This document shows positions 22,089-42,900 of a stretch of 64,000 nt of DNA, piece after piece (positions within the stretch are counted from its first letter, which is position 1; each line of letters begins with the position of its first letter). The DNA is from an uncultured Candidatus Saccharibacteria bacterium (GTDB lineage Bacteria > Patescibacteriota > Dojkabacteria > GCA-002793355). The stretch is taken from contig CAZGEO010000002.1 in NCBI GenBank assembly GCA_964525295.1, forward strand, positions 1,230 to 65,229, given 5' to 3'. Below the pieces are notes generated by a model. That model had not been told where the DNA came from, searched no databases, and saw only the letters and a list, made by a program, of their open reading frames with translations. Position numbers and translations under genes: made by a program.

Positions 22089-22096
22089 AAGTACTG

Positions 22097-22116
22097 TTTT
22101 GACGGTAGTGAGTGAG
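22097..22116 (+). repeat. Direct repeat copy 1 (TTTTGACGGTAGTGAGTGAG)
   Basis: 19 of 20 identical to the copy at 22357-22376, 260 bp away. The interval contains a 9-bp-stem hairpin (GGGAATATG/CATATTCCC) and an inverted AAATACGGGG/CCCCGTATTT pair. Confidence 0.6.
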
Positions 22117-22356
22117 CGGAATTAATAAATACGGGGAATATGGGTGCATATTCCCGAGATTCGCCCACCTCACGGCTTTACTCGGTGCCTCTGCTTGAGT
22201 TCAGCACGTTCCTCGACCCACGGTTGTTCGCATATGAAATCGTTCATATGCTCATTCAACCGTTTCTCATCCCACAATTCTTCCCTTTTTCAATTTCTCT
22301 CACTCGCCCCGTATTTTTCAATTTCGGTTCACGAGCGTAAACCGTTAAAACGAATG

Positions 22357-22376
22357 TTTTGACGTTAGTGAGTGAG
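22357..22376 (+). repeat. Direct repeat copy 2 (TTTTGACGTTAGTGAGTGAG)
   Basis: See copy 1. It lies immediately left of the element attL. Confidence 0.6.
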
Positions 22377-22390
22377 AGAAATTTGAAAAA

Positions 22391-22411
22391 CGGAGGGGGA
22401 GGGATTCGAAC
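22391..22411 (+). repeat. attL direct repeat (copy of the tRNA-Ser 3' end)
   Basis: Identical 21-mer to 32978-32998. The flanks diverge on both sides. Confidence 0.75.
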
Positions 22412-22439
22412 ACCCACCAAATTTCGGACTCGTTAATCT

Positions 22440-22453
22440 ATCCTTGCAAGGAT
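22440..22453. repeat. Perfect 14-bp palindrome ATCCTTGCAAGGAT just inside the element left end
   Basis: Self-complementary 14-mer 29 bp from the attL core. Possible recombinase arm site. Confidence 0.4.
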
Positions 22454-22753
22454 TTTACTTGGGCAGGATTACGCACACTTGTCACGAAATTTGCACTTGA
22501 TGTATTCAAAGGTTGTTAGGCGCGTTCCCGCTCTGCGTCGAATGCAAATTGTTGCATTCTCCTTGAGTTTCTCATCCCAACATAATAAATGTAGGTGTCT
22601 GCCACTGTTTACACAGTACCAAACACCTACACGGAAGTTCTGTTCGCTTGTTCGCAACCTCATTATATTTGATGGACAGGCACTTTTCAATGTTTTAGGA
22701 ATGATGAAATCAACCAATGAAAGAAATAATACTTTATTAATTAACCTGCATAT

Positions 22754-25027: not shown

Positions 25028-25029
25028 AC

Positions 25030-26553: not shown

Positions 26554-27476
26554 TCCAAATATTGCAGTAAGCTATTCTTTTTTAAATGGGAATACATTAC
26601 TGAGTCGAAATCCTTTTCCCAGTCAATAAAAGTATTCATCCAATTTGCTAAATTAAAGCCAGTTACTTCCTCAATTTTCTTGTATGTTTCTGTCCCACAA
26701 TAAACCGTCCAGAGCCCTGATCTTTTTAATGTTTGTAGATAATGGTTATTGTTTTCTTCACTTGCTCGTACAAATAGTAAACATTGATGACCTTCTTCAA
26801 GTATTTTGTATATACTTGCGACTAAAAGGAGTCGATTAGTATTGCCTTTTTCGTTTGAGCTAAAGCCACTCTTAAAGTCAACGACAAATTTATCCTGTCC
26901 GTTTTCAAAATGTAAATCAAGCTCAAGGCTTATTTCGCCAGATGTGACTAATGTCCAAACTTTTTGATAATATTTTCTTAATTCCGCCTTTTCTTCCTCA
27001 GTGATATTTAATGAGTCGATAAAATCATTTAGTTCTGCTGACAGTTTTATGCGGACATCATTGAAAAGTGGAGGAATAATATACTTAACATTCTGATTAA
27101 TTGGATTTTCCCAACATAATTGACAAAATGGCTCCCATAGTTCACCTATCCTTCTTGCAAATGTCATGTACTCGTATGGCCATACTTCATTTCGTGATTC
27201 CATCATTACTATGTAGTTTGTATATGTAATCAATAAGACACCTTCTAAAATTGCTTTTGAAGACCAATTCTCAGACTGGGCTTTTTGTTTTAGTGTTTTT
27301 ATTAAATTCTCCTTGCATGAAACTAATTCACTATTAATTGCTGAAGCCCGCAGTTTGTAGTCTTTTTCTCCATAGGTTTGCTTGATTTGAGATAGAAACT
27401 CTCTAGATCTGCTTCTAAAATATTCTAGAAGTTCAGTCTTTTTTGTTCGGATATTATTGTCTATTAGTTCAGACAT
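26547..27476 (-). CDS. Putative restriction endonuclease (PD-(D/E)xK-like) partner of the MTase
   Basis: 309 aa. Candidate ELDLH ... VVDFKSG catalytic residues. Sits between the C-protein gene and the MTase gene in a translationally coupled operon. Confidence 0.4.
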   Translation of the reverse strand: MSELIDNNIRTKKTELLEYFRSRSREFLSQIKQTYGEKDYKLRASAINSELVSCKENLIKTLKQKAQSENWSSKAILEGVLLITYTNYIVMMESRNEVWPYEYMTFARRIGELWEPFCQLCWENPINQNVKYIIPPLFNDVRIKLSAELNDFIDSLNITEEEKAELRKYYQKVWTLVTSGEISLELDLHFENGQDKFVVDFKSGFSSNEKGNTNRLLLVASIYKILEEGHQCLLFVRASEENNNHYLQTLKRSGLWTVYCGTETYKKIEEVTGFNLANWMNTFIDWEKDFDSVMYSHLKKNSLLQYLEW

Positions 27477-27477
27477 T

Positions 27478-27699
27478 TTATTTATATAATAATTTATCTA
27501 TTGTTACTTCCAAAGCTTCTGCAACTTTCATTATAAAGTTGATTGATGGCTTTTTTATTACCTCAGTTTCAACTTTTACTAGAGTAGTGAGTGGAATATC
27601 AGCCTTTCTTGCTAACGCTTCCTGCGACAAATCTTTTTCCTTTCGCCACTTCTTTATTTGCTCTGCAATATTAACTTTTTGCGTATGTCGTGTTTCCAT
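27478..27699 (-). CDS. XRE-family HTH regulator (R-M controller C-protein-like)
   Basis: 73 aa. LSQEALARKADIPLTTLVKVE helix-turn-helix. First gene of the R-M operon. Confidence 0.75.
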   Translation of the reverse strand: METRHTQKVNIAEQIKKWRKEKDLSQEALARKADIPLTTLVKVETEVIKKPSINFIMKVAEALEVTIDKLLYK

Positions 27700-27793
27700 T
27701 TATTGCAAGTCTATTAATGTTACTTTGTATAGTTTAGCATTCAAAAATTAAATCTACAAATAAAATGCTTGTATTCAAAATCTGCTCAGATTG

Positions 27794-27822
27794 TTGACAA
27801 ACTATTTAGAGTGGTATATATT
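27794..27822 (+). promoter_or_regulatory. Sigma70-type promoter for the plus-strand element genes
   Basis: TTGACA at 27794-27799, 17-nt spacer, TATATT at 27817-27822. Divergent from the C-protein gene. Confidence 0.45.
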
Positions 27823-27860
27823 AGTATAGTGACAAACATTAATATATTTAACTCAATACT

Positions 27861-28640
27861 ATGAATATCGTAGATAAAACAATAAGTAACTTTGTAAAAC
27901 AGATGTATGAATGGGGTTTAACTTCCGATACAACAAATAGATATGATCTTTCCTCAGATACAGTTGTCGATTTGATTACAAAAAGCTCATGGAATATTGA
28001 ATTTGATAGAAAGAAACTCATTTACTATTCACGACATAGTTTTCTTCCCTCAGCTAAGAAAATGGGCTTAACCTCTGCACTTGGTGGAACAGTTGGTTAT
28101 CACAAAATCAAAGTACCAATGATGTTATGGTACATTCACCAGTTGTACAAACGAGGATATAAGCATGATGAAATACGCATCCATGTTTACAACTATTTTT
28201 CAAGCCAGTTGCCACCAAAACCAGTTGAAAATACTCCAATGGAAGAAAGAGTCCTCTACAATCTAAGACTTAATAAAAAGCTCTTTGTAGCCCTCCCAGT
28301 TGTTGAAGAAATGACTGTGTATACTCAAAAGGTATCAATACCATGTTGGAAACTAACAGTATTTGACTATTACCACTCAAAATTAGACCCATTCTATGTG
28401 GTTTTAATCCCTAAAAATAACTTAACAACTCAAGAAGCTAATATCCTTTCAGTTTTACGAACTGATAACGAGTATCTCAAACAAGAGGGATTTAAACGAG
28501 TTTCAATTGTTGATGGGGTATCAAGCATTGAATATCTTGAACCTTTAATGATTTACAAGAACTACGCCATGAAAACCGATAACGATAGTACCGATTATTT
28601 AGATTTATTAGATCAAAATATCTCTTATGACACAATCTAA
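27861..28640 (+). CDS. hypothetical protein (element cargo)
   Basis: 259 aa with no recognisable motif. Confidence 0.4.
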   Translation: MNIVDKTISNFVKQMYEWGLTSDTTNRYDLSSDTVVDLITKSSWNIEFDRKKLIYYSRHSFLPSAKKMGLTSALGGTVGYHKIKVPMMLWYIHQLYKRGYKHDEIRIHVYNYFSSQLPPKPVENTPMEERVLYNLRLNKKLFVALPVVEEMTVYTQKVSIPCWKLTVFDYYHSKLDPFYVVLIPKNNLTTQEANILSVLRTDNEYLKQEGFKRVSIVDGVSSIEYLEPLMIYKNYAMKTDNDSTDYLDLLDQNISYDTI

Positions 28641-28842
28641 AGTATCACCTGAACTAAAAAAACAATATCTTGAGCTATTACAAAGCCCTGAAATATACAA
28701 TATTCACTTGGAAGATCTCAAAAAGATAATTGAAGAATTTACAAAATTTGAGTTTGGTACTTACGAAATTAAAATATCAAATAAAAGGATTGATAGCACG
28801 ATATTACATATAAAAACAGGTAAAAGAAAAACGAAACAATAA
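28627..28842 (+). CDS. small hypothetical protein
   Basis: 71 aa, overlaps the upstream gene by 14 nt. Confidence 0.3.
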   Translation: MTQSKVSPELKKQYLELLQSPEIYNIHLEDLKKIIEEFTKFEFGTYEIKISNKRIDSTILHIKTGKRKTKQ

Positions 28843-28890
28843 GTAAATAATTTAGATATTAGCCCTCAGCTACCCTTAGTTGAGTTGTAG

Positions 28891-28967
28891 AGAGGTCTAA
28901 GTCTTAAAGGTCATTTGTTAAGCATAACGCTTACAGCCTTTTTGATTTAGACCTCTTTTTTGTTTTT
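28891..28967 (+). terminator. Candidate intrinsic terminator (10-bp stem AGAGGTCTAA/TTAGACCTCT with a structured loop, then TTTTTGTTTTT)
   Basis: Perfect 10-bp inverted repeat 28891-28900/28947-28956 followed by a T-run. Confidence 0.4.
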
Positions 28968-29146
28968 AAAACATATGAAGAAGCGAAAGCAGAAAACAAA
29001 AAATGAAAAAGTAATGCGTGAGTTTGCAAGAAACTGGATTCTGCTATTCCTTGAGCAAAATGGATATTCGCATTTAATTGGTAAATCTAAAAAGGTAACG
29101 AAATCGTCAGTAGATATAAACCCATTAAGCAACTTTTTGAAAAACA

Positions 29147-29935
29147 ATGATAAAAGCAAATAACCAAGACAAAGTAATATTTCGAGAGTTAGAAAAGCAA
29201 TACGGTTTTGCTCAAATTAGCCATTTAATAACGGAAGATAGATTGCTTTCAGACCTTGCAGTCAGAGTTTATTTAGCTTTGCTCAAATATGCCATGAATA
29301 AAAACTACTGCTTTCCAGGACAAGACAGACTATCCGAAACAATCGGCAAAAGCAGAAGCTCAGTATTTAGAGGATTAAATGAGCTTAGAAATCGTGGGCT
29401 TGTGTCTTGGAAAACACGAGGACTTAACAAAACGAATATGTATATCCTTGAGCCAATTTCAGAAATATATGCTGAAAAACTCAATACTATTGCGGATGTG
29501 TCAGAATTGCAACATCCAGATGTTGCAAAATTGACACATCAAGGTGAGTCAGATTTGACCTACAAAGAATATAAAGTTAAAGAAGAAAAGATTAAAAATA
29601 ATAAGTTAACGTTAAACGATGATTTTAAATCTTATTTAGAGGAAGCGATAGAACTAGCTAAAGAACTAAACGACCTCAAAAGCATCAAATATTATCAAAT
29701 GCTAATCAGCCAAAAGAACAAAGGCATTGTTAATTCAGAAGATATTACAGATTCTCTTATTTTTACACGCACTCAAATTCGTACAGCTCAAGTTGATGGA
29801 ACAAAACCTCTCAGCAATCCTGCTGGACTATTTGTAAAAACACTTAAAGATTTACAGGAGAAACGAAAACGCAAAGAGCAATTGGCAAAACTTGAAACTA
29901 TGAGGAATAAATTCTTAGAAAAATCTAAATTTTAA
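29147..29935 (+). CDS. HTH_36-type replication initiator / replisome organiser-like protein
   Basis: 262 aa. FPGQDRLSETIGKSRSSVFRGLNELRNRGLV matches the winged-HTH of plasmid/phage Rep proteins. Charged coiled-coil C-terminus. Confidence 0.5.
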   Translation: MIKANNQDKVIFRELEKQYGFAQISHLITEDRLLSDLAVRVYLALLKYAMNKNYCFPGQDRLSETIGKSRSSVFRGLNELRNRGLVSWKTRGLNKTNMYILEPISEIYAEKLNTIADVSELQHPDVAKLTHQGESDLTYKEYKVKEEKIKNNKLTLNDDFKSYLEEAIELAKELNDLKSIKYYQMLISQKNKGIVNSEDITDSLIFTRTQIRTAQVDGTKPLSNPAGLFVKTLKDLQEKRKRKEQLAKLETMRNKFLEKSKF

Positions 29936-30067
29936 CTATTAAAAACCATGATTGATAAAGTGTTGAATGTACCTCACCGAAAAGGGCTTTTGGAGGGATC
30001 CAGTTTCTCACCATGTTGTCAAATACGAAAGTTACGGTCTGTCGGACTTTTACAGAACCTCGTGACT

Positions 30068-30115
30068 GATTGGGTGGAAGACGAAACTGCGTTTCCTAAT
30101 GTCTTCCACCCAATC
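30068..30115. repeat. 15-bp perfect inverted repeat with an 18-nt loop containing a nested 5-bp hairpin (candidate replication origin or regulatory stem-loop)
   Basis: GATTGGGTGGAAGAC (30068-30082) and GTCTTCCACCCAATC (30101-30115). The loop holds GAAAC-TGC-GTTTC. Flanked by GAGGGA/TCCCTC. Locally GC-rich. Confidence 0.7.
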
Positions 30116-30219
30116 ACTCCCTCGACAACGATTAATGTGTGTGAGTTACACATTAAGTTCTGTGAAAAGTGTGTGATCGACAGACCTTACTTTATTTAAT
30201 TTTTTAGTTATTTATTTTT

Positions 30220-31197
30220 ATGAAAGACAGTTATATAGCAAAGTACAATGATATTGCGATATTAGGGATAGTTAATAGTTTTAGATTTTTACCGCTTCAA
30301 GTTTTGACTAAGATTTTGATTGAGAAGAAGTTATACGGAAGTTATCAAGCTGTTAGTAGAACAGTAAACAGATTAAGGGAACATGGATTAATTAGAACGA
30401 CTTACTATACCAACAATGCCAAAATTATATTTTTATCTCGTCTTGGGGCAAAACAGCTCGCAACTGGTACAGGTGTGAGTGAAGATTCCATTAATTGCCC
30501 TGAAAGGCTAACAGGTGTGAATTTCTTCGCATTGGAACATACAGTTAAAGTTGCAAATCTGTATTTATTACTGCTTCGAGAGTGTCAAAAACACAATTTA
30601 ATCCTCAGAAAATTTACAGGTGACCATTTTACACGGTACGAATATCAGTTTCGCAATACTTCATCGGGTAGGATTATCAAGCGATATGTAATGCCTGATG
30701 CAGAAGTTGAAATACAAATAGAAAATATCGTTTTTTCATTTTGGATTGAATACGACAGAGGAACGGAATATTCAAAAGATGTTGCGGTCAAATACATGAA
30801 ATACTTTGAATATTTTGATCAACTCAAACAACAAAAAGTTTATACTTATCCAAATATCCTCTTTATCACCGAAAGCACAAAAGAAAGACTTAAAAACCTT
30901 GTTGTATTTGAGCCTGAATATACAGGTAATTGGAGTTGGAGTCATGCCAGTATGAACTTCAAGAATGTTGTTTTAAAGGGTGTAACAATGGCAGATGATA
31001 TTCGCAGTATGACGGATTATGTTGTAGATGATTTTTTGCAAAAGGATAGATTTCTTTTTACCGACTATGCGACCTTTGAGCAAAAGGGATTGAGTACAGA
31101 GTTTCTCAATATGAACGCCGAAAACTTCGATTTACTTAATTTCATAAAAAAGGAAGTCGAAAAATTAACAGAAAATAAAAACGATGGTAGAATATAA
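30220..31197 (+). CDS. Replication-relaxation family-like protein (N-terminal wHTH)
   Basis: 325 aa. Its N-terminus resembles the winged-helix of plasmid replication-relaxation proteins. Confidence 0.35.
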   Translation: MKDSYIAKYNDIAILGIVNSFRFLPLQVLTKILIEKKLYGSYQAVSRTVNRLREHGLIRTTYYTNNAKIIFLSRLGAKQLATGTGVSEDSINCPERLTGVNFFALEHTVKVANLYLLLLRECQKHNLILRKFTGDHFTRYEYQFRNTSSGRIIKRYVMPDAEVEIQIENIVFSFWIEYDRGTEYSKDVAVKYMKYFEYFDQLKQQKVYTYPNILFITESTKERLKNLVVFEPEYTGNWSWSHASMNFKNVVLKGVTMADDIRSMTDYVVDDFLQKDRFLFTDYATFEQKGLSTEFLNMNAENFDLLNFIKKEVEKLTENKNDGRI

Positions 31198-31220
31198 GCG
31201 ACCACAACTTAAATATTTGC

Positions 31221-31493
31221 ATGACCCAAAAGCTATTAAAGGGTTATTTGATAGTAATAAGGGCTATTCGTACAATTTCATGCAAATGGAGTTGTGGTCA
31301 ACGAGTAGCCCTTTTTTGTTATGTAAATATGATGATTAGTAAAACATTAAATAAGAATATTAAACACGAACAAACAACCTATTCTGAGGAGGAAATAAGG
31401 CGGTTAGCCAAATATTTTGAGATATTAATAAAAATAAATGACCGTATTAAATTAGTTAAACAACCAAAATGCAAAACCAAGAAAATACAATAA
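31221..31493 (+). CDS. small hypothetical protein (possible recombination directionality factor)
   Basis: 90 aa basic protein immediately upstream of, and overlapping, the integrase start. Confidence 0.2.
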   Translation: MTQKLLKGYLIVIRAIRTISCKWSCGQRVALFCYVNMMISKTLNKNIKHEQTTYSEEEIRRLAKYFEILIKINDRIKLVKQPKCKTKKIQ

Positions 31494-33007
31494 AATCTGC
31501 GGTTATTTATACTCGTGTATCTACCGAAGACCAAGCTAAAAAGGACTTATCACTTCCTTACCAACTATCCCAATGCCAAGAATTTGCTAAACGAGAGGGC
31601 TATACAGTAATGGAACATTTTGAAGACCCTGGAAAATCAGGGAGAAATATTCAAAGACCATCGCTTCAATCAATGCTTCATTACATCACTGATAACAAGA
31701 TCAATGCAGTAATTGTTTACAAACAAGATAGGCTTTCAAGAAGTCAGGCTGACTTTTGGGGAATGATTGATTTATTTAAAAGAATAGGTACAGAATTCAT
31801 CTCAATTACTGAAAGATTCGGAAATACAGCAGAGGGAACTATCTCAATGGGTGTAATGTCATCATTTGCTCAATACTATTGTGATTATTTATCAGGCAAT
31901 GTTAAAAAAGGTCAAAAGCAAAAAGTTAATATTGGTTGGTGGCCAACATTTGCACCTTTAGGATATGAAAATTTTGGTGAAAAGAGTTTCAAGAAAATTA
32001 GACCAGTAAAAGAAATTGCAGAACAAGTTGTTCATGCCTTTAAATTGTTTGCAACTGGTCAATATTCAATTACAGAGCTTACAGAAACAATGATAAAACG
32101 AGGTATGACTTCAAATGGAGGAAACCCAATATCAAGAACAGCAATAGGTAGAATGTTAAGAAATCCTATCTATTATGGAAGCTTCTATTGGAACGGAGAG
32201 TTATACAAAGGAGAACATGAGCCAATACTCGACAAAGAACTTTTCGATAGCGTACAGGCGGTTCTAGACCTCAACAGAACGAAAGGTACAAGGGATTGTA
32301 AACACAATTTCATGTTAAGAGGCTATCTTTACTGTAAATGTGGTTCAATGCTTACAGGTGAGATTAAAACCAAGAATTACAAAAACGGAAATTCTCAACA
32401 ATTTGCATATTATGGTTGTAAGAGCAGAAAAAAATCAAAAGATTGCTCAAGAACATATATTGCTATGAATAAAATCGAAGATATGGTTACGGATTTATTC
32501 AAAAGTGTGCAGTTTTCTGATGAATTCAAAAAGATAGTATTGTCCGAAGCTAAAAAGATTATTTCTGAGATACGAGATACTGAAAGCGATGAAGAAAAGA
32601 TAATCAAGCAAAGGATAGCTAGACTTAATCTAAGAATGAAGAACGCAGAAGACGACCGCTTTGACCGAGTAATTACAAGAGAGCATTTCACACAAGTTTA
32701 TGAAAGGATAAAGGCAGAACTTGATGAAGCTAACATTGAGTTGTCAAAACTCAATAAAGACCATACAAAAACTATTAAAGTACTTGATGAACTACTTGCT
32801 TTTACTGATGATATTCAAAAATCGTATATTGAGGCTGATAATGAGCTTAAAAGAAGATATCTGCAAATCTTCTTTGAGAAAATAATTGTGAATGATGGAC
32901 AAATTGTTGATGTGATATACACACCTGCAATTTCTCAACTTTTAGAAATTGATCGAGTCCGAATAACGAATAACTGGCGGAGGGGGAGGGATTCGAACCC
33001 ACGATAG
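31469..33007 (+). CDS. Large serine recombinase (integrase)
   Basis: 512 aa. Resolvase catalytic domain AVIYTRVSTEDQ, recombinase domain, Cys-rich zinc ribbon (CKCGS..YYGCKSRKKSKDC) and coiled-coil. The last ~11 codons are encoded antisense to tRNA-Ser. Confidence 0.85.
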   Translation: MQNQENTIKSAVIYTRVSTEDQAKKDLSLPYQLSQCQEFAKREGYTVMEHFEDPGKSGRNIQRPSLQSMLHYITDNKINAVIVYKQDRLSRSQADFWGMIDLFKRIGTEFISITERFGNTAEGTISMGVMSSFAQYYCDYLSGNVKKGQKQKVNIGWWPTFAPLGYENFGEKSFKKIRPVKEIAEQVVHAFKLFATGQYSITELTETMIKRGMTSNGGNPISRTAIGRMLRNPIYYGSFYWNGELYKGEHEPILDKELFDSVQAVLDLNRTKGTRDCKHNFMLRGYLYCKCGSMLTGEIKTKNYKNGNSQQFAYYGCKSRKKSKDCSRTYIAMNKIEDMVTDLFKSVQFSDEFKKIVLSEAKKIISEIRDTESDEEKIIKQRIARLNLRMKNAEDDRFDRVITREHFTQVYERIKAELDEANIELSKLNKDHTKTIKVLDELLAFTDDIQKSYIEADNELKRRYLQIFFEKIIVNDGQIVDVIYTPAISQLLEIDRVRITNNWRRGRDSNPR

Positions 33008-33064
33008 GCATACACCTATATCAGTTTTCAAGACTGACGCCATCAACCACTCGGCCACCCCTCC
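32975..33064 (-). tRNA. tRNA-Ser (anticodon TGA), with encoded CCA
   Basis: 90-nt type II tRNA. GGAGGGG acceptor, 3-bp D stem, anticodon loop CTTGAAA, long variable arm (ATAGG/CCTAT), T loop TTCGAAT. The 3' 21 nt form the element attR core. Confidence 0.85.
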
Positions 33065-33129
33065 AATTTTTGAGAGAAATCAACGAAATCAGGTTGACAG
33101 CTGAATTATACCTCTTTTGAGAAAAAAGT

Positions 33130-34041
33130 TCAATTCAATGCTAGTTGCATTACAGGAATAATAACCGATCTTTCGGTTGATTGCTTAATTGTAGAGGAAG
33201 CTGATCCAGCATAGAAAAGTCTACCAGGAGCTATGCAAAAGGCATCGAACGTGACATTATCGGTAGGCGTTGGGTGAAAGTAATTATCGAGGGTTGAGAT
33301 TCTTGCATTGTGTAATGGAAGAGCCCAGGTAGATGAATTGGTAACCATTGAAAGTGGTGCCGATACGCCATTGATTGTACTAGCTACGTGCGCTAAAACG
33401 ATACATTCGCTATTGTTTGGTGCGCCGGAGATATTTCCTGAAACGGCTATCTTCTCCTGTGTAGCGACGAGAGTTTTTGGTAGTTGCAAAGCCTTTGTTA
33501 TTGGGGATGCTCCAACAAAGTAATAAATGTTCTCTGGTTTCAGATTTTTTGCGGTGGCGCTATGCAAATATGATGGAGAAATAACTCCACGGTCATCAGT
33601 TACCTTGTTTGTTAAAGCATTTTGTGAATTTCCGTGAGATAAAAGTGTTGGTTGTGGAGCTTCAGTCAGCCAGATGAGGGTAAACGACGAATCTGAAATA
33701 TTTGATAACAGTCCTGTTGTTGTTAGTTCAGTGTAAAAAGAGGGAGTCTGTTGTTTTGTAACTGTCGAGGGGGTCATTGTTTCAATCGGAATATATGGGG
33801 CAGGTGCTTGTAAAAGTGATTCAGCAACAGAAGAAAGTACACTAACTTGATCTATCTGCTCGGGTGTAGGAGAGGCCTCAACAATTGGAGTGTTTGGATA
33901 ATAAATTGTTGCTGATGCGTTACGCGTGTGACCATTTTTGATATAAGGGATAATTACCAAAAGAGCAAGAAAAGTTACAGAAACAACAAATATACCAATT
34001 GGAAAAACGATTGAGAATTTTTCGGGCAATTTCATACTCAC
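33130..34041 (-). CDS. Secreted hypothetical protein (N-terminal signal anchor), last gene of the T4SS-like module
   Basis: 303 aa. N-terminal hydrophobic helix, then a Ser/Thr/Pro-rich extracytoplasmic region. Confidence 0.45.
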   Translation of the reverse strand: MSMKLPEKFSIVFPIGIFVVSVTFLALLVIIPYIKNGHTRNASATIYYPNTPIVEASPTPEQIDQVSVLSSVAESLLQAPAPYIPIETMTPSTVTKQQTPSFYTELTTTGLLSNISDSSFTLIWLTEAPQPTLLSHGNSQNALTNKVTDDRGVISPSYLHSATAKNLKPENIYYFVGASPITKALQLPKTLVATQEKIAVSGNISGAPNNSECIVLAHVASTINGVSAPLSMVTNSSTWALPLHNARISTLDNYFHPTPTDNVTFDAFCIAPGRLFYAGSASSTIKQSTERSVIIPVMQLALN

Positions 34042-35906
34042 TCTGAACCTGGCTCAAATACTAAAGATCCCTCGCTGATATCTTCATCTCGGATTTCAAA
34101 ATTTTCAGCTTTCATCTTCGCTAATTCTTTCGGGTTTGAGGTAATTAATCTATGTTCAGCTCTACTTGCAATGATTGAGATTCCAACATGACTCTTTCCT
34201 GCGAAGAAAAGACCTTCACCGACCTTTGTACTGAGAACGAAACTGCGTTCACCTGAAGAGAGATTAAAAGTTCTTTCAATAATATCGATTGCAGCAGGGC
34301 TTTGCTTTAATAGAACTTGAATACTAGAGTTAGTCACAACCGCTTTGCCATATCTTGACGTAAGAAATTCGTCAACGTCTTGGCTGATTGTAGTTAACCC
34401 AAGATAATATTTTCTTCCACGTTTTGCAATACCGTACAGGAACTTGGCTGAATCTTCATACTGCATCATTGTCCAGGCTTCGTCTACAATGAGTATTCGG
34501 GGGCGAATGTCTTCGCGAACTCGGGTCCAGATGAAATCAAGAATCATGTACATTGCAATTGGGCGAAGGTCATCCTGCAAGTCACGAATGCTAAAGACGG
34601 TAAATTTGTTTTTAATATCTATGTTAGTACTCTGATTGAATACTCCGGCAGCGCTTCCGAACACGTACTTTTCAAGTCTAGCGGAAAGTGCTCGAGCTTC
34701 AGGCTCTGCCATTCCTTTGAGGATTTTATACAAGTCTTCAAGTAAAGGAGCAGGATTTTTCCATGTTTCAGGATCGTTGTTGATTCCTTTTTCGTTATAG
34801 GTAAGCATGAATGCTTTATCGAGAATAGAAACTTCGACATTGGTTAATTCACCGAGAAGGAGTTTAATTAATGTATGCAGTGACAAAACTTTGTCGCGCA
34901 GTACATTGCGAACACCTTCTTTAGACTCTTTTAGGAACTCGAACGGATTGATTTTTGATCCTTCATCTTGTGAGAAAGTAATGAATTCTCCATCGACAGC
35001 GCGTGCCAATTTCTCGTATTCATTTTCAGGGTCGATAATAATAATTTGTGTGCCTGTAAGAAGATAGCGTAGCGCCTCGAGTTTAACGAAGTAACTTTTA
35101 CCAGCACCAGATGTCGCAAATACGACCTCGTTTAAGTTGGGCATACTAAAACGATCAAATACTACCATGCTATTGTTGTGCATGTTGACTCCGTAAAGTA
35201 TTCCTTTATCCATGGTAAGATCAGACGTCACAAATGGAAAAGTCATGGCAATTGAAGTGGTGTCCATGTTACGTACACGGTAGATTTTGTCGAGCGCGTA
35301 GGGAAGTGTTGAGTCAAAACCTTCATCCATCTTGAGGGTAAGAGGTACAGCTTCAAGGCCAACTGCCTTTAAGGTTGATACGACATTTTTTGACATTGTT
35401 TCAAGCTGCTCGAGATTGTCCGAGTTCAATCGAATGTACATCCCCATATTGAAGAATTTCTCTTTTCCTGAGGCAACGTTGTCGATTAATTCTTGAGCAT
35501 CTTGGTAAGCGACCTTGCTCTTTGGGTCGAGAACGACACCCTTTTCGTATTGAGTAGACAAGGTCGCCTCGAGTTCTGCAATTTTCTTTTTAAGTTTGTC
35601 GATAACTTCGTCAGAATCGACCAAGTAGTAAAAAGTGCTGATCGCAAGGGAAGATTCGAAGTTAATGAGTGGTGAGAGCCAAGTTGAACGCACAACACGT
35701 GGGAAGTTCACCACCATGAGAATTCGATAATACCGATTGTTAACCTGCACGTGATTAAAATCTACCTCGTAATATTGAGGTGCTAGTAGATCAGCAATAG
35801 TGAATTCATCTGAAGCAAACTGTTGTTCCGCCTGTTCAATTTGAATCTGTTCAGAAGTCTTCTGTTCAGGTAAAAATGGAATTTTGAATGGGAGTTTGAA
35901 TGCCAT
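34038..35906 (-). CDS. VirB4/TrbE-family type IV secretion ATPase (Gram-positive PrgJ/TcpF-like)
   Basis: 622 aa. N-terminal YYRILMVVNFP motif, Walker A FATSGAGKSY, Walker B ILIVDEAW, and a downstream LTTISQ motif. Confidence 0.75.
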   Translation of the reverse strand: MAFKLPFKIPFLPEQKTSEQIQIEQAEQQFASDEFTIADLLAPQYYEVDFNHVQVNNRYYRILMVVNFPRVVRSTWLSPLINFESSLAISTFYYLVDSDEVIDKLKKKIAELEATLSTQYEKGVVLDPKSKVAYQDAQELIDNVASGKEKFFNMGMYIRLNSDNLEQLETMSKNVVSTLKAVGLEAVPLTLKMDEGFDSTLPYALDKIYRVRNMDTTSIAMTFPFVTSDLTMDKGILYGVNMHNNSMVVFDRFSMPNLNEVVFATSGAGKSYFVKLEALRYLLTGTQIIIIDPENEYEKLARAVDGEFITFSQDEGSKINPFEFLKESKEGVRNVLRDKVLSLHTLIKLLLGELTNVEVSILDKAFMLTYNEKGINNDPETWKNPAPLLEDLYKILKGMAEPEARALSARLEKYVFGSAAGVFNQSTNIDIKNKFTVFSIRDLQDDLRPIAMYMILDFIWTRVREDIRPRILIVDEAWTMMQYEDSAKFLYGIAKRGRKYYLGLTTISQDVDEFLTSRYGKAVVTNSSIQVLLKQSPAAIDIIERTFNLSSGERSFVLSTKVGEGLFFAGKSHVGISIIASRAEHRLITSNPKELAKMKAENFEIRDEDISEGSLVFEPGSE

Positions 35907-35907
35907 A

Positions 35908-36540
35908 TTATACGTAAATTTGAGGTAATCCTTCGAGCTGAATCGAAGAGTTTGGATTATACACAGAGTACAAGTATTTCGCTATTTCTGGGCTAGTCAT
36001 CTGTTCGCCGTCTAACCCCATTCCTTTAAGCATTTTTATTACGTGATATTTCTTAGGATAGAGGTAGTTGATAGCATTCTCAATCATTTTCTTCTTATCC
36101 TCAAATGGTGTTGCACTGGTGACGGTAGTCATTGTTCTAAATGGAATCACGATCATGAATTTTTTGTCGAGAATTTCTTTATTGGTGATAAGGTTTCGAA
36201 TGAATTGTTTATAGATAGTGAATTGGCGTTTTAAGCCAGGGCTGAGATCTGGAGTATCAAGTTCATCAAGATAATCGGCATATTTACTAATGTTGATCTT
36301 CCTTGTTTCAATTAAAATTTGTAGCTGAAAATCTAACGAATTGACCATATTTCCGAAAGAAGCTATTTTGATATCCTGTTCTTCTTCTGAAAGCAGATCG
36401 AAGTTAACAGAAGAGGTCATGATCAATAAACAAACCGTTCCATTTCTCGTTATTAATAAATCATTGATGATATCTGCTGCTTCAACTATGCCTTGAGTGC
36501 CAATTGCAATTGGGCTCGATCCTATGCCAGTTTCGCTCAT
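35908..36540 (-). CDS. T4SS-associated hypothetical protein (translationally coupled to virB4: TAATATG)
   Basis: 210 aa. Its stop is 1 nt from the VirB4 start. No TM. Confidence 0.4.
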   Translation of the reverse strand: MSETGIGSSPIAIGTQGIVEAADIINDLLITRNGTVCLLIMTSSVNFDLLSEEEQDIKIASFGNMVNSLDFQLQILIETRKINISKYADYLDELDTPDLSPGLKRQFTIYKQFIRNLITNKEILDKKFMIVIPFRTMTTVTSATPFEDKKKMIENAINYLYPKKYHVIKMLKGMGLDGEQMTSPEIAKYLYSVYNPNSSIQLEGLPQIYV

Positions 36541-37331
36541 ACTGTAATTGGTGACAAATTAATTAATGGATAGGTATTTCCCTCAAGCAGAATACGTACT
36601 CGGGGAAAATTAAGTGCATCAGATTGAAAATCGATTTCATAGACACCGTTGTTAAACCCTTGATTGAAGTAAATAATACCATCTGCATTGCTACGAAGTG
36701 CTGCTACAACGGCATTTGACTGGTCTTTCATATAAGCAACGACTCCTTCGATTGGTAGATTGTCGTCGATAATACGAAAAACAAGTGTATTTGGAATCTT
36801 GGGAATATTTGTCATCATATCGGCATAGTCGGTGATATTTTGCGATGTAATCTCGAGAGTTGGGATAATTTGTGGTTGGTCTTGAATTTGCGAAATCATT
36901 CCAGGAGATGCGACAGAACCGGCATCGCGCATTAATTTCTTGTATTCATCTGCATTCATGAAATATGCAGCCAGATAGTTTGGCAATACAGCAGGTTTTG
37001 TTGAGAAAAATTGCTCCTTTTTAATAACGTCAGTACCTTTCTTCCAAACTCGGCGAAGTGGAGTGTTGAGATTGCGAACGTATGCAGTGAGCCATTCTTC
37101 CATCGTTCTCTTTTGGTATGAACCAAGACCGAGTATAATTCCTACAAGCACGACAATAGGAATAAGTATCCAGGCAAAAAAACTTGGGAGTATTTCGACC
37201 TTATTTAATTGAAATAAGGCGAATGCAATAGCACCTGCTGCTGCAACATAAACGAATTGACGCAAACTTAAGCCTGCAAACAGCTTAAATTCATACTCCA
37301 TAATATTTTGTGGAATTGCGTGTTCGTACAT
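36537..37331 (-). CDS. Membrane protein, VirB3/PrgI-like candidate (two N-terminal TM helices)
   Basis: 264 aa with two adjacent hydrophobic helices near the N-terminus. Overlaps the downstream gene by 4 nt. Confidence 0.35.
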   Translation of the reverse strand: MYEHAIPQNIMEYEFKLFAGLSLRQFVYVAAAGAIAFALFQLNKVEILPSFFAWILIPIVVLVGIILGLGSYQKRTMEEWLTAYVRNLNTPLRRVWKKGTDVIKKEQFFSTKPAVLPNYLAAYFMNADEYKKLMRDAGSVASPGMISQIQDQPQIIPTLEITSQNITDYADMMTNIPKIPNTLVFRIIDDNLPIEGVVAYMKDQSNAVVAALRSNADGIIYFNQGFNNGVYEIDFQSDALNFPRVRILLEGNTYPLINLSPITV

Positions 37332-37376: not shown

Positions 37377-38186
37377 ATGGCAAACGAGGCAAAAAAGATA
37401 ATTCAAGAATTGAAGCACAACTTTGGTTGGCCATTTGATTGCCTTCGCTACGGTTATAATTCGGATAATAGATTCATTTCGCTCGATGGCCGTGAATCAT
37501 GGAGTCCTTCTCTTGAAGTTCAGCAAAAGATCAAAAATTCATTGAAGAAGCTTGAAACCGCCAGAAAGGCTACTGAAATTCTCGCAAAAATTCCCTGGGT
37601 CAAGGGAGTATTTGTTACTGGTTCCGTCGCTTCATTGAATGCTCAATTCGATGATGATATTGATTTTTGGCTTATCGTCTCGCCAAGGAGAATTTGGCTC
37701 ACCCGTGCCTTGGATTGGTTGATTTTCACACTTCGAGGTAAAAGAAGACTCGCAATTCATGGAGTTGACCAACACAAGGTTGCAGATAGATTCTGCTTTA
37801 ACTTCTATACAACAACAGCAGCATTAACGCTACGCAAACAAAATGTTTCTTATGCGATGCAGTTTGTAGACGCAATACCACTGTGGTTAGAAAGTGAAGT
37901 ACTGTACAAAGAATTATTGCAATCAAATCGTTGGGTTGAGCAGTATTTTCCTGAATGGTACAAGAAGTATGATGCAGTCTATCGTGAAATATCGGGCGAT
38001 TTCAATACGCAAACTTTCTTTGTTTTAGATATCTTTGAATATATTGCTGGTGTTCTCATGTTATTGAAATCTAGGCATAAATTAGTGCTAAGCCCAAAGA
38101 ATATATTTGCCGAACAATTTACAACCTGGGGCACAGAGCGTATACTCTCAGATTATGACGAGAAAACTATCACCGAAAGAAGTTAA
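37377..38186 (+). CDS. Nucleotidyltransferase-domain protein (Pol-beta superfamily)
   Basis: 269 aa. TGSVASLNAQFDDDIDFWLIV fits the GS-x(n)-DxD minimal NTase motif. Confidence 0.5.
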   Translation: MANEAKKIIQELKHNFGWPFDCLRYGYNSDNRFISLDGRESWSPSLEVQQKIKNSLKKLETARKATEILAKIPWVKGVFVTGSVASLNAQFDDDIDFWLIVSPRRIWLTRALDWLIFTLRGKRRLAIHGVDQHKVADRFCFNFYTTTAALTLRKQNVSYAMQFVDAIPLWLESEVLYKELLQSNRWVEQYFPEWYKKYDAVYREISGDFNTQTFFVLDIFEYIAGVLMLLKSRHKLVLSPKNIFAEQFTTWGTERILSDYDEKTITERS

Positions 38187-38709
38187 GAAATTCAATAAGC
38201 AGTTTAAAAAGAAAACTGAGATTGTCTTGGTATGTGAAAATATGGAATATGCAAGGAATGTCGCGAGTGTTTTTCGTATTGCAGATGCACTTGGCGTGAA
38301 GAAGGTATTTCTAACTGGAGCTTCGCATAAACCACCATTTGGTAAAGATCTACAAAAGGTCTCACGAAGTAAAGAGATGAAAGTAGCATGGGAATATTCG
38401 GAGACTGCAGCTGATGTATTGAGCAAGCTAAAAAAAGATGGATTTACTACCATTGCAATCGAGCAATGCGAAGGTGCAGTAATGTATACTGACTTTGAAT
38501 ACCCAGAAAAGATTGCGTTTGTTGTAGGTAGTGAAATGTTTGGCATGTCAAAAAAGACTGCAGAAATGTGCGATGCAGCCGTAGTTCTTCCGATGTTCGG
38601 AAAGGGCGGCTCTATCAATGTTCATGTTGCCATGGCAGTTGTAGCTTTCTATGCTGCAACGGTATATGCAAACATCAAGGGTGAAGATGAACTAGAAGCT
38701 GAAGAATAA
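38155..38709 (+). CDS. SpoU/TrmH-family RNA 2'-O-methyltransferase
   Basis: Start chosen at Met17 of the 200-aa ORF. SPOUT motifs VLVCENMEYARNVASVFR, VVGSEMFGMS and the C-terminal INVHVAMAV knot. Confidence 0.7.
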   Translation: MTRKLSPKEVKKFNKQFKKKTEIVLVCENMEYARNVASVFRIADALGVKKVFLTGASHKPPFGKDLQKVSRSKEMKVAWEYSETAADVLSKLKKDGFTTIAIEQCEGAVMYTDFEYPEKIAFVVGSEMFGMSKKTAEMCDAAVVLPMFGKGGSINVHVAMAVVAFYAATVYANIKGEDELEAEE

Positions 38710-40544: not shown

Positions 40545-41129
40545 TTATGGCTTTTCAGTAAAGACCAAGGTGAGAGTTGGTTGTACCTGTAACTTGGTAG
40601 TAGGTTCAAGAATAATCGTAACAGGTACTATAGAATTTGCTGAGACAACCATTTCTACGGGTGAAATGACCCCTTCTGCCGAGATGATTTCCATTTTTTG
40701 ACCTTCATATAGTACTGAAATCTTTGTATAGGAACCTTCAATTGAGTATGTCGGTGTCAACATTACTTTCTTGTCAGTTAGTGAAGTATTCTTAATGGTA
40801 GTGACGGTAAATTCATACGTAGATGGCTCCAAGGTTGAGAATTGAATGTCAGCGGTAGCCTGGCCAGAGAAATCTGTCGTACCGGCGAAACTTGAAGCTG
40901 TAATGTACGGAACTTTTGCTAAAGATTGGGGAAAATAGGTGAGGGTTCCCACATTGTCACTTTTTGCGCCTAGAACATTGCTATTATTCTGTGCAATTTG
41001 TACCGCTGATTTTGGCGTTAAGGCAGAAAGGCCATAGAACGTTAAACCCAAGATGCTTACCGATAAGACGGTAAGTAGAGCATCGCCTACTAGGGCAGTA
41101 ACGCTACGCTTTTCTTGTTTTCTCTCCAT
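40545..41129 (-). CDS. Secreted hypothetical protein (signal anchor, beta-rich)
   Basis: 194 aa. N-terminal hydrophobic segment. Confidence 0.4.
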   Translation of the reverse strand: MERKQEKRSVTALVGDALLTVLSVSILGLTFYGLSALTPKSAVQIAQNNSNVLGAKSDNVGTLTYFPQSLAKVPYITASSFAGTTDFSGQATADIQFSTLEPSTYEFTVTTIKNTSLTDKKVMLTPTYSIEGSYTKISVLYEGQKMEIISAEGVISPVEMVVSANSIVPVTIILEPTTKLQVQPTLTLVFTEKP

Positions 41130-41661
41130 ATAAATAGCTGATCATATCTGAAATATGAGTATCGAGGTATGCAAATACCTGATACGTGTAGAATACCGCA
41201 AAAACCGCAAGAATGAAAGGGATGTAAAGTGGGATTATGTTCGACCTGAACTCACCAAAGAGTGAGATAACTGCGAGCCAAAGGAATATTCCCCATGAAA
41301 AGAGCTTGGGATACATATCTTTACCATCTTCAATCCAAGAGCTGAGATTGTAATGAATGACTTTAACCAAAACTCTTGGTGATCTAGTTAAGTCATTAAA
41401 TAATATCGTTTTAGCAAGAATAATCATTACGGCAATAACGATAATAGAAATAAACACAAGCCCCCCAATAATTGAAACTGATTGGACTTGTGCCGTAGAT
41501 TCTACAACTATACTATTTATGATGCTCCCTTCGGTCGCAACAAACGTAAATCTACTACCAGTTGCTAACAAACCTACCCAAATGCCAACAAGTTTTGCGA
41601 CAAAAAGAGTAGTTGCTGCATAAATAGAGGTTTCGAAGAATTTTTTCAGAAAGCTACTCAT
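41104..41661 (-). CDS. Polytopic membrane protein of unknown function
   Basis: 185 aa with ~4 hydrophobic helices. Confidence 0.45.
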   Translation of the reverse strand: MSSFLKKFFETSIYAATTLFVAKLVGIWVGLLATGSRFTFVATEGSIINSIVVESTAQVQSVSIIGGLVFISIIVIAVMIILAKTILFNDLTRSPRVLVKVIHYNLSSWIEDGKDMYPKLFSWGIFLWLAVISLFGEFRSNIIPLYIPFILAVFAVFYTYQVFAYLDTHISDMISYLYGEKTRKA

Positions 41662-41707
41662 AATAAGTCAGTATACCGTACTTTGAAAATCTATGCTACA
41701 CTAATTC

Positions 41708-42478
41708 ATGAATGCTGCCATGAAATGGTTTCTAGTAATTGGGATAATTGCGGTAACATTCGTATTGCCCGTAATTTTACAATCAATGACCGAAAATAAG
41801 AGTAAAAATCTGCAACAAGTTGAGCAAGAATCGGCGAATGTGCCAACTCCTTCACCTGTTGTTGTGAAATCTATTCCTCCGACTTCTGTCATTGCAGGAA
41901 GTGATTTTACCTATCGAATTTCAGTAGAAACCAATCCAATTCAAGAAATTGTCGCAGTTGTAACCGAAAAGCCCGATTGGCTCGAATGGGATGAGACACA
42001 GAAGATATTAACAGGTAAAGTTCCTGAAAAACCTGGTACCTTCACTGCTACAGTGGTTGTAACAACATTAGCAGGTGATTCTGTCACGCAAAAAATGACA
42101 GTAATAATAACAGCGAACGAAGCAGCTGTTCAAGGTGCTTCAACAACAATGACGTCATTTGATCCTTTTCACCCTGAAGTTACAACTACTGTTGAGCCAA
42201 CACCAGAAGAAATAATTCCAACGACGGTTGTTCCTACAGCTGTTTGGCAACTTTCAGGCGATTCTTTCACAGGCATTGGAACAACACCAGAAACGGCTCA
42301 AGTTCTTGGTGAATCTACCTCAACAAATGTTGCTATCCGTGTAGATTATTTACTTTACGGCGCAGCAGGTTTGCTCTTGGTATCTATTGGTTACTTGCTT
42401 GCACGTTTGTTCTCAAAAGATAAGAATATCGCCAGAAAAACCTCATCAGGCGTTGTTGTTCAGTCAGTTAGGTCATGA
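41708..42478 (+). CDS. Surface protein with a putative Ig (dystroglycan/cadherin-like) domain and C-terminal TM anchor
   Basis: 256 aa. Signal anchor, SIPPTSVIAGSDFTYRISVE domain, C-terminal helix LLYGAAGLLLVSIGYLLARLF. Confidence 0.45.
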   Translation: MNAAMKWFLVIGIIAVTFVLPVILQSMTENKSKNLQQVEQESANVPTPSPVVVKSIPPTSVIAGSDFTYRISVETNPIQEIVAVVTEKPDWLEWDETQKILTGKVPEKPGTFTATVVVTTLAGDSVTQKMTVIITANEAAVQGASTTMTSFDPFHPEVTTTVEPTPEEIIPTTVVPTAVWQLSGDSFTGIGTTPETAQVLGESTSTNVAIRVDYLLYGAAGLLLVSIGYLLARLFSKDKNIARKTSSGVVVQSVRS

Positions 42479-42900
42479 AAAATTTTTTACCGAAACTCGC
42501 CATAATTAGCGGATTATTTGTTATAGTCACCCCACTTGTGATGGTACTTCTATGGGGAAGGTATGTTCGCGAACAAGAACAACTCGAAGGAACACAGTTG
42601 TTAGTAAAATCTGAGTGCGAACCATACAATATGTCGCTCGATCGAGCAGATGATGGGAAATACCGTATTTCTTGGCAAACCAAAGGAGTATGTGAATCAC
42701 ATGTTTTACTCGCCTCGACCTACACTGACTTTGCCAATATGCCGTACCAAGTGTCACCAATAACCGTGAGTCTTGAGAAAAATTCTTATCAAGTAATTCT
42801 TCAGGCACAAGATGAGATTGACTATCGGTATGCGGTTATTGTTTCTAACGGGGAATGGTATGGACTACAGGGAAGTCCTTTCTTGCTTGAGAAAAGATAG
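42475..42900 (+). CDS. hypothetical protein with an N-terminal TM helix
   Basis: 141 aa, ATGA-coupled to the upstream gene. Confidence 0.4.
   Translation: MKNFLPKLAIISGLFVIVTPLVMVLLWGRYVREQEQLEGTQLLVKSECEPYNMSLDRADDGKYRISWQTKGVCESHVLLASTYTDFANMPYQVSPITVSLEKNSYQVILQAQDEIDYRYAVIVSNGEWYGLQGSPFLLEKR

Follow-up and report, generated by a model that had tools for sequence, protein, structure and literature searches.

A predicted type IV secretion core operon beside tRNA-Ser in the chromosome of a Candidatus Dojkabacteria bacterium

The closest described counterparts of the operon analysed here, a run of four genes in a 64-kb stretch of DNA (the window) from Candidatus Dojkabacteria, are the type IV secretion systems (T4SS) of the Patescibacteria. 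In a 2025 survey by Quinonero-Coronel et al., 2,417 of 3,035 Patescibacteria genomes carried VirB4, nearly all of it in one Patescibacteria-specific clade nested within MPF_FATA (PMC12102498). Among the partners, TrsD was found most often and PrgI/VirB3 frequently; VirB2-like pilins and VirB6 were variably detected (VirB6 homologues in 480 cases among the 2,417 VirB4-positive genomes), relaxases were rare, and the T4SS was often located near dnaA (PMC12102498). The genes are often dispersed or too divergent to detect, and a monoderm conjugative element is the presumed ancestor of all Patescibacteria T4SSs (PMC12102498). Dojkabacteria are named in the preprint and are VirB4-positive in its dataset (PMC12102498). 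A requirement of the T4SS for epibiotic growth is known for S. epibionticum only, where the cluster SEML1_0006-0019 is essential (Wang et al. 2023, PMC10633639); according to a 2025 review, this essentiality is independent of ComEC-mediated competence.

The operon is an ordinary instance of the T4SS described in 2025 for the same phylum. Like the Patescibacteria-clade systems it is chromosomal, lies in a reduced genome from the candidate phyla radiation (CPR), encodes an MPF_FATA-related VirB4 with TrsD and PrgI/VirB3 partners, and has neither a relaxase nor a type IV coupling protein (T4CP) in the cluster. Unlike them, it was found with no VirB6 homologue, VirB2-like pilin array or wall hydrolase within the 64 kb, it lies beside tRNA-Ser and LepA and not near dnaA, its PrgI carries a C-terminal transthyretin-like domain, and a lineage-specific FN3 protein is encoded in the operon. 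These features, and a neighbouring integrative mobilizable element (IME) of MOB_C type, are new details and not a new kind of system. We give a probability of roughly 80% to the reading as a whole, function included, namely that the operon encodes the cytoplasmic-membrane energising core of a chromosomal Patescibacteria-type T4SS derived from monoderm MPF_FATA conjugation machines; the functional part, which is drawn by analogy, is much less certain than the identity.

The PrgI-like, TrsD-like and VirB4 core

An earlier reading of the sequence (the original prediction) had placed four minus-strand open reading frames (ORFs) in a tight operon beside tRNA-Ser and had taken them for a T4SS-type module with a VirB3-like membrane protein, a coupled small protein, a VirB4 ATPase and a secreted protein. 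All four ORFs are present at the predicted coordinates (Table 1), a T4SS-type module with VirB3-like, coupled and VirB4 components is supported, the family scores of its PrgI and VirB4 proteins (below) being far above chance, and the gap to the tRNA gene measures 65 nt (33065-33129), one less than the 66 nt predicted. Direct reading of the junctions shows that the PrgI-like and TrsD-like genes overlap by ATGA, that TAA-T-ATG joins the TrsD-like gene to virB4, and that the TGA stop of virB4 is followed by GT and the ATG of the FN3 gene. The G+C content of the module (0.39-0.40) matches that of the host chromosome. Scans for promoters and terminators gave counts equal to chance expectation, and an Rfam scan of the window returned two tRNAs and nothing else.

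Table 1. Positions of the T4SS operon and of other features in the window
Feature	Positions	Strand	Length	Basis or remark
PrgI/VirB3-family membrane protein	36537-37331	minus	264 aa	PF12666 match
TrsD-like protein, soluble	35908-36540	minus	210 aa	detached VirB4 N-terminal domain
VirB4 ATPase body, CD1110 / MPF_FATA type	34038-35906	minus	622 aa	NF045971 match
Membrane-anchored tandem FN3 surface protein	33130-34041	minus	303 aa, GTG start	AlphaFold model and Foldseek
tRNA-Ser(tga)	32975-33064	minus		ARAGORN and Rfam
IME	22412-32998		~10.6 kb	bracketed by 21-nt repeat; outside the T4SS module
Large serine recombinase	31469-33007	plus		Pfam Resolvase, Recombinase, Zn_ribbon_recom; CcrB-like, E 3e-46
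Replic_Relax protein, MOB_C-type relaxase candidate	30220-31197	plus		PF13814, 39.8 bits (gathering score 25.3)
Type II restriction enzyme	26547-27476	minus		PADLOC REase_II, E 4.2e-90
Type II DNA methyltransferase	25030-26553	minus		PADLOC MTase_II, E 3.4e-36; Pfam Eco57I, N6_Mtase
PifA-like KAP NTPase	22754-25027	minus		PADLOC PifA, E 5.6e-86; Pfam KAP_NTPase
Small membrane/surface protein	within 40545-42900		194 aa	N-terminal transmembrane (TM) helix and beta-rich domain; weak PKD and cupredoxin hints
Small membrane/surface protein	within 40545-42900		185 aa	four TM helices
Small membrane/surface protein	within 40545-42900		256 aa	He_PIG Ig domain; TM helices at both ends
Small membrane/surface protein	within 40545-42900		141 aa	N-terminal TM helix

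The 622-aa protein is, with near certainty on the strength of its profile matches, a VirB4. It scored 371.3 bits with the NCBIfam model NF045971 (VirB4-like conjugal transfer ATPase, CD1110 family; cutoff 325), and 276, 178 and 129 bits with the models for the Mycoplasma VirB4 of integrative and conjugative elements (ICEs), F-type TraC and VirB4/CagE, respectively; its clade was placed by profile scores together with a ranking of identities. Pfam matches comprised P-loop_TraG (88.8 bits), AAA_10 and CagE_TrbE_VirB (30.4 bits, gathering score 21), and the VirB4 C-terminal domain structure PDB 4AG5 was matched with E 3e-45. The predicted Walker A, Walker B and LTTISQ motifs are all present in the translation (FATSGAGKSY, ILIVDEAW and GLTTISQ) and intact. 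The protein also matches the Pfam DUF87 / HerA central domain (E 6.6e-9), which could point to a P-loop ATPase of HerA, FtsK or coupling-protein type outside the T4SS. That domain match is generic to the ASCE clade, however, and the models for such proteins gave far lower scores (HerA 15, TraD 13.8 and CedB 41 bits) than the CD1110 VirB4 model, the cutoff of which is exceeded. With the CagE_TrbE_VirB N-domain above its gathering score and PrgI and TrsD partners adjacent, this alternative is effectively refuted, and the ATPase assignment of the original prediction holds.

The NF045971 match spans model positions 172-734 of 752, which implies that the usual N-terminal domain is missing from the 622-aa polypeptide. 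The TrsD-like gene lies between the VirB3-like gene and virB4, and its product matches positions 113-280 of the Mbov_0397 VirB4 model (E 3.6e-5, below the model cutoff); the VirB4 body covers positions 280-892 of this same NCBIfam model, continuing where the TrsD-like match ends. The two parts are collinearly fused in P0096, a protein of 787 aa in which a TrsD-like domain at residues 5-201 is joined to a VirB4 body that is 52% identical, gap-free, to residues 41-606 of the window VirB4. Because both proteins cover adjoining parts of one model and occur as a collinear fusion, the pair of genes for 210 and 622 aa is a split VirB4, to which the literature gives the names TrsD and VirB4. The coupling of the small protein to VirB4 was correctly predicted, and the protein itself can be described more closely as a TrsD-like, detached VirB4 N-terminal domain.

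The TrsD assignment draws on the fusion protein and on similarity, both pairwise and by profile. On a Pontibacillus plasmid, the gene immediately upstream of a CD1110-family virB4 encodes a protein that shares 25% identity (E 2e-20) with the TrsD-like protein; for the Berkelbacteria equivalent the identity is 24% (E 1e-19). An exhaustive HMMER search with the TrsD-like protein returned 1116 representative homologues, and the matched stretch is at or near the N-terminus in all 150 of the homologues listed. PDB sequences were also searched, using each of the PrgI-like, FN3 and TrsD-like proteins as well as a profile built from 41 TrsD sequences; no significant match was returned, so that the TrsD-like protein is not linkable by sequence to a solved VirB4 N-domain. 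In Peregrinibacteria and Gracilibacteria (loci L009-L022 of our comparison set), the mechanically called VirB4 ORFs are 850-1030 aa long, lengths that may be start-codon or genetic-code artefacts of such calling. The N-terminal ~300 aa of these ORFs are not TrsD-like, as judged from L018, where comparison of the long extension with the TrsD-like protein found no similarity; this agrees with a published note that TrsD is unlinked to virB4 in Gracilibacteria.

The first gene of the operon, predicted to encode a VirB3-like protein with two TM helices, lies directly upstream of trsD, and residues 6-91 of its product match PF12666 (PrgI) with 48.4 bits, above the gathering score of 27. The PF12666 domain is shared by 31 of 31 PrgI-like homologues (253-288 aa). 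In the AlphaFold model, a two-helix membrane hairpin at residues ~23-44 and ~50-69 (predicted local distance difference test score, pLDDT, ~95) is followed by a helix, a poorly predicted linker and a C-terminal beta-sandwich at ~158-259 (pLDDT >90), the best Foldseek match of which is 8bdw (CnaB2 domain, E 1.5e-5), followed by transthyretin-like domains. Nine Lys/Arg residues in the ~35 positions after the second helix form a basic juxtamembrane stretch. VirB3 has an N-in/C-in topology. With this topology and the positive-inside rule, the extra beta-sandwich domain is probably cytoplasmic.

Three monoderm MPF_FATA systems were compared with the operon: the TrsC-TrsD-TrsE subclass of pGO1, the CD1110 family of CTn2, and the cluster on the Pontibacillus plasmid NZ_CP062975.1. 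The last shares with the window the order VirB3-like, TrsD-like, VirB4, which recurs in Berkelbacteria, and its VirB4 and TrsD are 33% and 25% identical to those of the window. On either side of this core it also has pilin-like genes, a TrbL/VirB6-like protein of 779 aa and a peptidoglycan endopeptidase of 1050 aa, none of which was found in the window, and it is plasmid-borne, whereas the window locus is conserved and chromosomal. The best plasmid match of VirB4 itself is in Embleya NZ_CP108778.1 (35% identity over 97% of the query), where PrgI is likewise extended (349 aa). The Embleya cluster also holds a TrbL-like protein, a T4CP, a replication-relaxation (MOB_C-type) protein and an NlpC/P60 hydrolase in one gene run, with an XF1762 protein in the place of TrsD; this protein was considered as a TrsD equivalent and rejected, as it has no similarity.

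Conservation of the locus and the mobile island beside it

The assignment of the source to Candidatus Dojkabacteria supports the predicted host, a small-genome episymbiont. VirB4 is 82-86% identical in the closest Dojkabacteria genomes, including the complete 0.89-Mb genome CP129470.1, and 63-75% in Dojkabacteria further away; for Peregrinibacteria, Gracilibacteria and Berkelbacteria the figure is 45-47%. The best plasmid homologues are 29-37% identical and all monoderm (Embleya/Streptomyces 35-37%, Priestia/Pontibacillus 33-34%). By identity ranking, the window VirB4 is thus nearer to other Patescibacteria VirB4 proteins (45-47%) than to any plasmid record (<=37%). A contig labelled as an Oceanicoccus (Gammaproteobacteria) metagenome-assembled genome (L016) carries a Patescibacteria-type VirB4 of 46% identity; it is probably a binning error and was left out of the analysis.

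The PrgI-TrsD-VirB4 order is kept in eight of eight Dojkabacteria loci, each with the nucleotidyltransferase-like gene and the SpoU methyltransferase gene alongside, and the wider flank (LepA, four small membrane/surface proteins, holA, LCP and YceG) is present in the five longest. The tRNA-Ser(tga) gene directly follows the module in L001-L005 and lies on its other side, on the opposite strand, in L006. In the five closest relatives used for an identity table (L001, L002, L003, L005 and L008), identities are 82-86% for VirB4, 78-85% for LepA, 72-78% for the TrsD-like protein, 56-58% for the PrgI-like protein and 29-35% for the FN3 protein. Judged by these identities, VirB4 is as conserved as LepA and the three-gene core is under strong purifying selection. 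Because of this conservation and the synteny in eight loci, the module is a core, strongly constrained chromosomal locus with no relaxase inside the cluster, and not a variable ICE. Neither dnaA nor dnaN was found among the window ORFs scanned and the cumulative GC skew rises monotonically across the window, indicating that the locus is not at the origin; the origin proximity proposed for other classes was accordingly rejected for this one.

The nucleotidyltransferase-like ORF (37377-38186) is divergent from the operon, its start codon lying only 45 nt from that of the first operon gene. It shares 80 nt with the SpoU methyltransferase ORF as called mechanically from a TTG start (38107), and because of this overlap the true SpoU start is probably further downstream; the stretch concerned is 37377-38709.

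Beyond the tRNA gene lies a distinct mobile island. A 21-nt exact direct repeat, CGGAGGGGGAGGGATTCGAAC, which is the tRNA-Ser 3' end, occurs at 22391-22411 and 32978-32998 and brackets DNA with a G+C content of 0.30-0.34, as against 0.39-0.40 in the module. DNA beside the left repeat matches the region downstream of the L001 tRNA-Ser (86.5% over 52 nt), so that the site is seen empty in L001. Among the island genes are those for a large serine recombinase, an HTH_36 protein and a Replic_Relax (PF13814) protein, a family that has been equated with the MobC relaxase superfamily (PMC5357655); of the relaxases found in Patescibacteria, more belong to MOB_C than to any other class, 58 of 109 (PMC12102498). 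A relaxase candidate is therefore present in the window, contrary to the original prediction, and is located in this separate island. The cargo of the island at 22754-27476 is, by its profile matches, a defence set of a PifA-like KAP NTPase and a type II restriction-modification pair. A viral-contig scan with the relaxase gave no match. With a serine recombinase, flanking repeats, PF13814, an absence of genes for a mating pore and a relative in which the site is empty, the island is an independent IME that uses tRNA-Ser as its integration (attB) site.

The last 10 codons of the recombinase ORF are the tRNA-Ser 3' end, from which it follows that the recombinase C-terminus would change on excision; the excised form would extend the protein by ~35 codons. 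Relatives of the recombinase at 93%, 77% and 23% identity likewise overlap tRNA-Ser genes, and the anticodon is tga in the window and in L026, gct in L025 and gga in L027. The metagenomic contig L026 has the same backbone (hypothetical protein, helix-turn-helix protein, relaxase and recombinase, the last 93% identical) at a tRNA-Ser(tga), and its neighbours are NDK, ArgRS, ComEC, ComEA and DprA, with no T4SS genes beside it. It carries a Fic/DOC protein and an S-adenosylmethionine methyltransferase in place of the defence set of the window, which indicates modular cargo on a conserved backbone. The island resembles streptococcal PF13814 / MobC IMEs in combining an integrase and a PF13814 relaxase with no mating-pore genes, in its methyltransferase/defence cargo and in its site-specific integration with flanking repeats (PMC5357655, PMC12479173). 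It differs in the large serine recombinase ORF that ends inside tRNA-Ser, in its CPR host and in having no coupling protein, where the S. suis PF13814 IMEs carry a VirD4-type T4CP (PMC12479173). To its left, the ~300 nt between a GNAT gene and the left att repeat (22088-22390) have no Rfam match and contain several 20-nt inverted repeats and a 36-nt direct repeat pair (22088-22123 and 22348-22383, 83% identical); 57 nt of this DNA (22166-22222) match L001 15305-15360 at 81%.

The original prediction had left open that the module belongs to, or is left over from, a larger ICE inserted at the tRNA-Ser gene. The module does abut a tRNA gene, an element with recombinase and relaxase lies beyond that gene, and the Patescibacteria T4SS is thought to derive from a monoderm conjugative element. 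Yet the att repeats exclude the module, the G+C content of which is host-like where that of the island is not. The module and its flank (with tRNA-Ser in the closer genomes) stand in the same housekeeping context in eight loci, including island-free Dojkabacteria loci down to 63% VirB4 identity, and L001 has the empty site. The 93%-identical recombinase element lies at a tRNA-Ser with no T4SS beside it, from which the adjacency of island and T4SS in the window is seen as incidental and set by the tRNA target. Any ICE origin would predate the class, and we regard a part or remnant of an ICE as extremely improbable. The locus likewise lacks what a self-transmissible ICE or complete conjugative T4SS would show, with virB4 outside the att repeats and no T4CP, VirB6 or hydrolase found in the window.

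A second proposal connects the two neighbours functionally: the chromosomal T4SS would also be a mating pore, and the IME and other MOB_C elements of its kind would be exported through it after nicking by the relaxase that each encodes. The IME has a PF13814 / MOB_C relaxase candidate and no T4SS genes, MOB_C is the commonest Patescibacteria relaxase class, and near-identical IME backbones in different genomic contexts imply that the element moves. The Embleya cluster, the VirB4 of which is 35% identical, has its replication-relaxation protein directly beside the T4CP and VirB4. Against this, neither the island nor the rest of the window yielded a T4CP, the tRNA target site by itself accounts for the adjacency, and Patescibacteria are naturally competent, so that transformation could spread such elements; the PF13814 protein, too, is a relaxase candidate by sequence. 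Export through this T4SS is therefore unlikely in our view. Were it to occur, an essential, relaxase-less T4SS would be more than a device for host interaction and would be hijacked by small tRNA-Ser IMEs equipped with no more than a large serine recombinase and a MOB_C relaxase, CPR bacteria would gain a conjugation-like route for exchanging defence islands, and the IME beside the operon and its 93%-identical relative would be examples.

The FN3 surface protein and parts sought in the window

For the fourth gene, an ATG at 34035 is the probable start codon, because Met-3 of the GTG-started ORF is invariant in the family alignment and homologues begin there. In the AlphaFold model of its product, an N-terminal TM helix (7-35) is followed by residues 35-106 with pLDDT <50, a disordered linker of ~70 residues rich in Pro, Thr, Ser and Gln, and by beta domains at 107-300 with pLDDT ~90. 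Foldseek matched these two beta-sandwich domains to tandem FN3 structures such as 4lxo and to contactins (E 7e-5), and Pfam gave a weak PF16656 match. For the predicted 'secreted protein', a signal-anchored protein with a surface-exposed ectodomain is the better description. The family has 13 full-length members (276-303 aa), with 28-35% identity among relatives, and the gene is, by these comparisons, a fast-evolving, lineage-specific add-on to the three-gene core. An assignment as VirB8 was considered, the protein being bitopic and encoded downstream of virB4, and was rejected, since the model is a tandem FN3 and not an NTF2-like fold.

Several observations weigh against the reading of the operon as a T4SS core. 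The FN3 protein is no recognised T4SS component and is placed in the machine by operon position alone; L004 has an unrelated gene of 422 aa in its place, and L006 and L007 also differ at this position. Pfam and NCBIfam scans of the window ORFs detected no VirB6-, VirB2-, VirB1-, VirB8- or VirD4-like genes in the 64 kb, while related Berkelbacteria, Pontibacillus and Embleya clusters hold a VirB6-like gene and/or a wall hydrolase beside virB4. The TrsD/TraD model NF041427 scores 20.8 bits (E 2.8e-4) with the 210-aa protein, against a cutoff of 200, for which reason we call it TrsD-like and not a member of that NCBIfam subfamily. Finally, the function is extrapolated by analogy from one Saccharibacteria study.

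The same scans gave no wall-hydrolase or T4CP family among the window ORFs, and tblastn with ten proteins encoded next to virB4 in related loci (mainly small or multi-TM) found no window counterpart, in line with the original prediction, which had seen neither VirD4 nor VirB6 in the window. A nearby VirB6 homologue and VirB2-like pilins are frequent, not universal, in the Patescibacteria clade. The three-gene core could then be a stripped-down relic with no secretion channel and with some other role for a membrane-associated ATPase: no VirB6, pilin, hydrolase or T4CP gene was found nearby, unlike in related clusters, and VirB6 homologues were reported in only 480 cases among the 2,417 VirB4-positive genomes. 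The VirB4, however, is as conserved as LepA with its catalytic motifs intact, VirB3 and TrsD are kept with translational coupling, and in these genomes the genes of a T4SS are frequently scattered or have diverged beyond detection. A relic is thus quite improbable.

Four small membrane/surface proteins are encoded at 40545-42900, ~3 kb from the T4SS operon, and are syntenic in most Dojkabacteria loci. VirB6 or VirB8 were sought among them; none matches a T4SS family, and neither assignment found support. Large predicted surface proteins of 1097 aa (Big_9 hint) and 1359 aa (NosD / beta-helix hint) are encoded in 49062-54498 and 16553-20632, and a sortase (53701-54498) and a solute-binding protein (52355-53704) lie near them. 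All of them may belong to the cell-surface or host-contact repertoire that CPR genomes typically have.

A proposed role in epibiotic life

The combined results suggest a model of the T4SS core in Dojkabacteria. The PrgI/VirB3-like hairpin would anchor the ATPase to the membrane, and VirB4 would be made as two polypeptides, with the TrsD-like protein as the N-terminal, membrane-proximal domain and the 622-aa body as the P-loop motor. Translational coupling through the ATGA and TAA-T-ATG junctions may hold the three parts in a fixed ratio, and PrgI, TrsD-like protein and VirB4 together would form the inner-membrane energising complex of a monoderm-type T4SS. The co-translated fourth gene would supply the cell surface with a tandem FN3 ectodomain, carried by a long flexible stalk, which could be a fast-adapting wall-spanning or contact element. 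The partners of the core (a VirB6-like channel, VirB2-like pilins and a wall hydrolase) are presumably encoded elsewhere or too divergent to recognise. As in Saccharibacteria, the machine may support epibiotic host-cell interaction by moving macromolecules across the envelope, and would not serve the self-transfer of an ICE.

The macromolecule in question could also be incoming DNA, the module being an import machine like the archaeal Ced or Helicobacter ComB systems. The original prediction had suggested such a role, Patescibacteria depend on external nucleotides, and the VirB4 has weak similarity to the import ATPases CedB and CedD (41 and 28 bits). The CedB score is nevertheless far under the VirB4 scores and under the CedB cutoff of 700. 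Competence of S. epibionticum needs ComEC, and its comEC mutant is viable while the T4SS is still essential. DNA uptake by the T4SS finds no experimental support in the literature; Saccharibacteria competence depends on ComEC, and T4SS essentiality is independent of it. We consider import very unlikely. A core that supports epibiotic interaction remains the preferred reading.

The CPR T4SS is among the few machines shown to be essential for epibiotic life. The locus described here offers a clean minimal example, with a VirB3 and split VirB4 core under purifying selection on a par with that on LepA, a fast-evolving FN3 protein and no channel, pilin or hydrolase gene found nearby, and is useful for asking which T4SS parts cannot be dispensed with and at which points the contact proteins of a lineage join the machine. 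For the question whether chromosomal T4SSs can still move DNA, a concrete candidate is the MOB_C / serine-recombinase island next to it.

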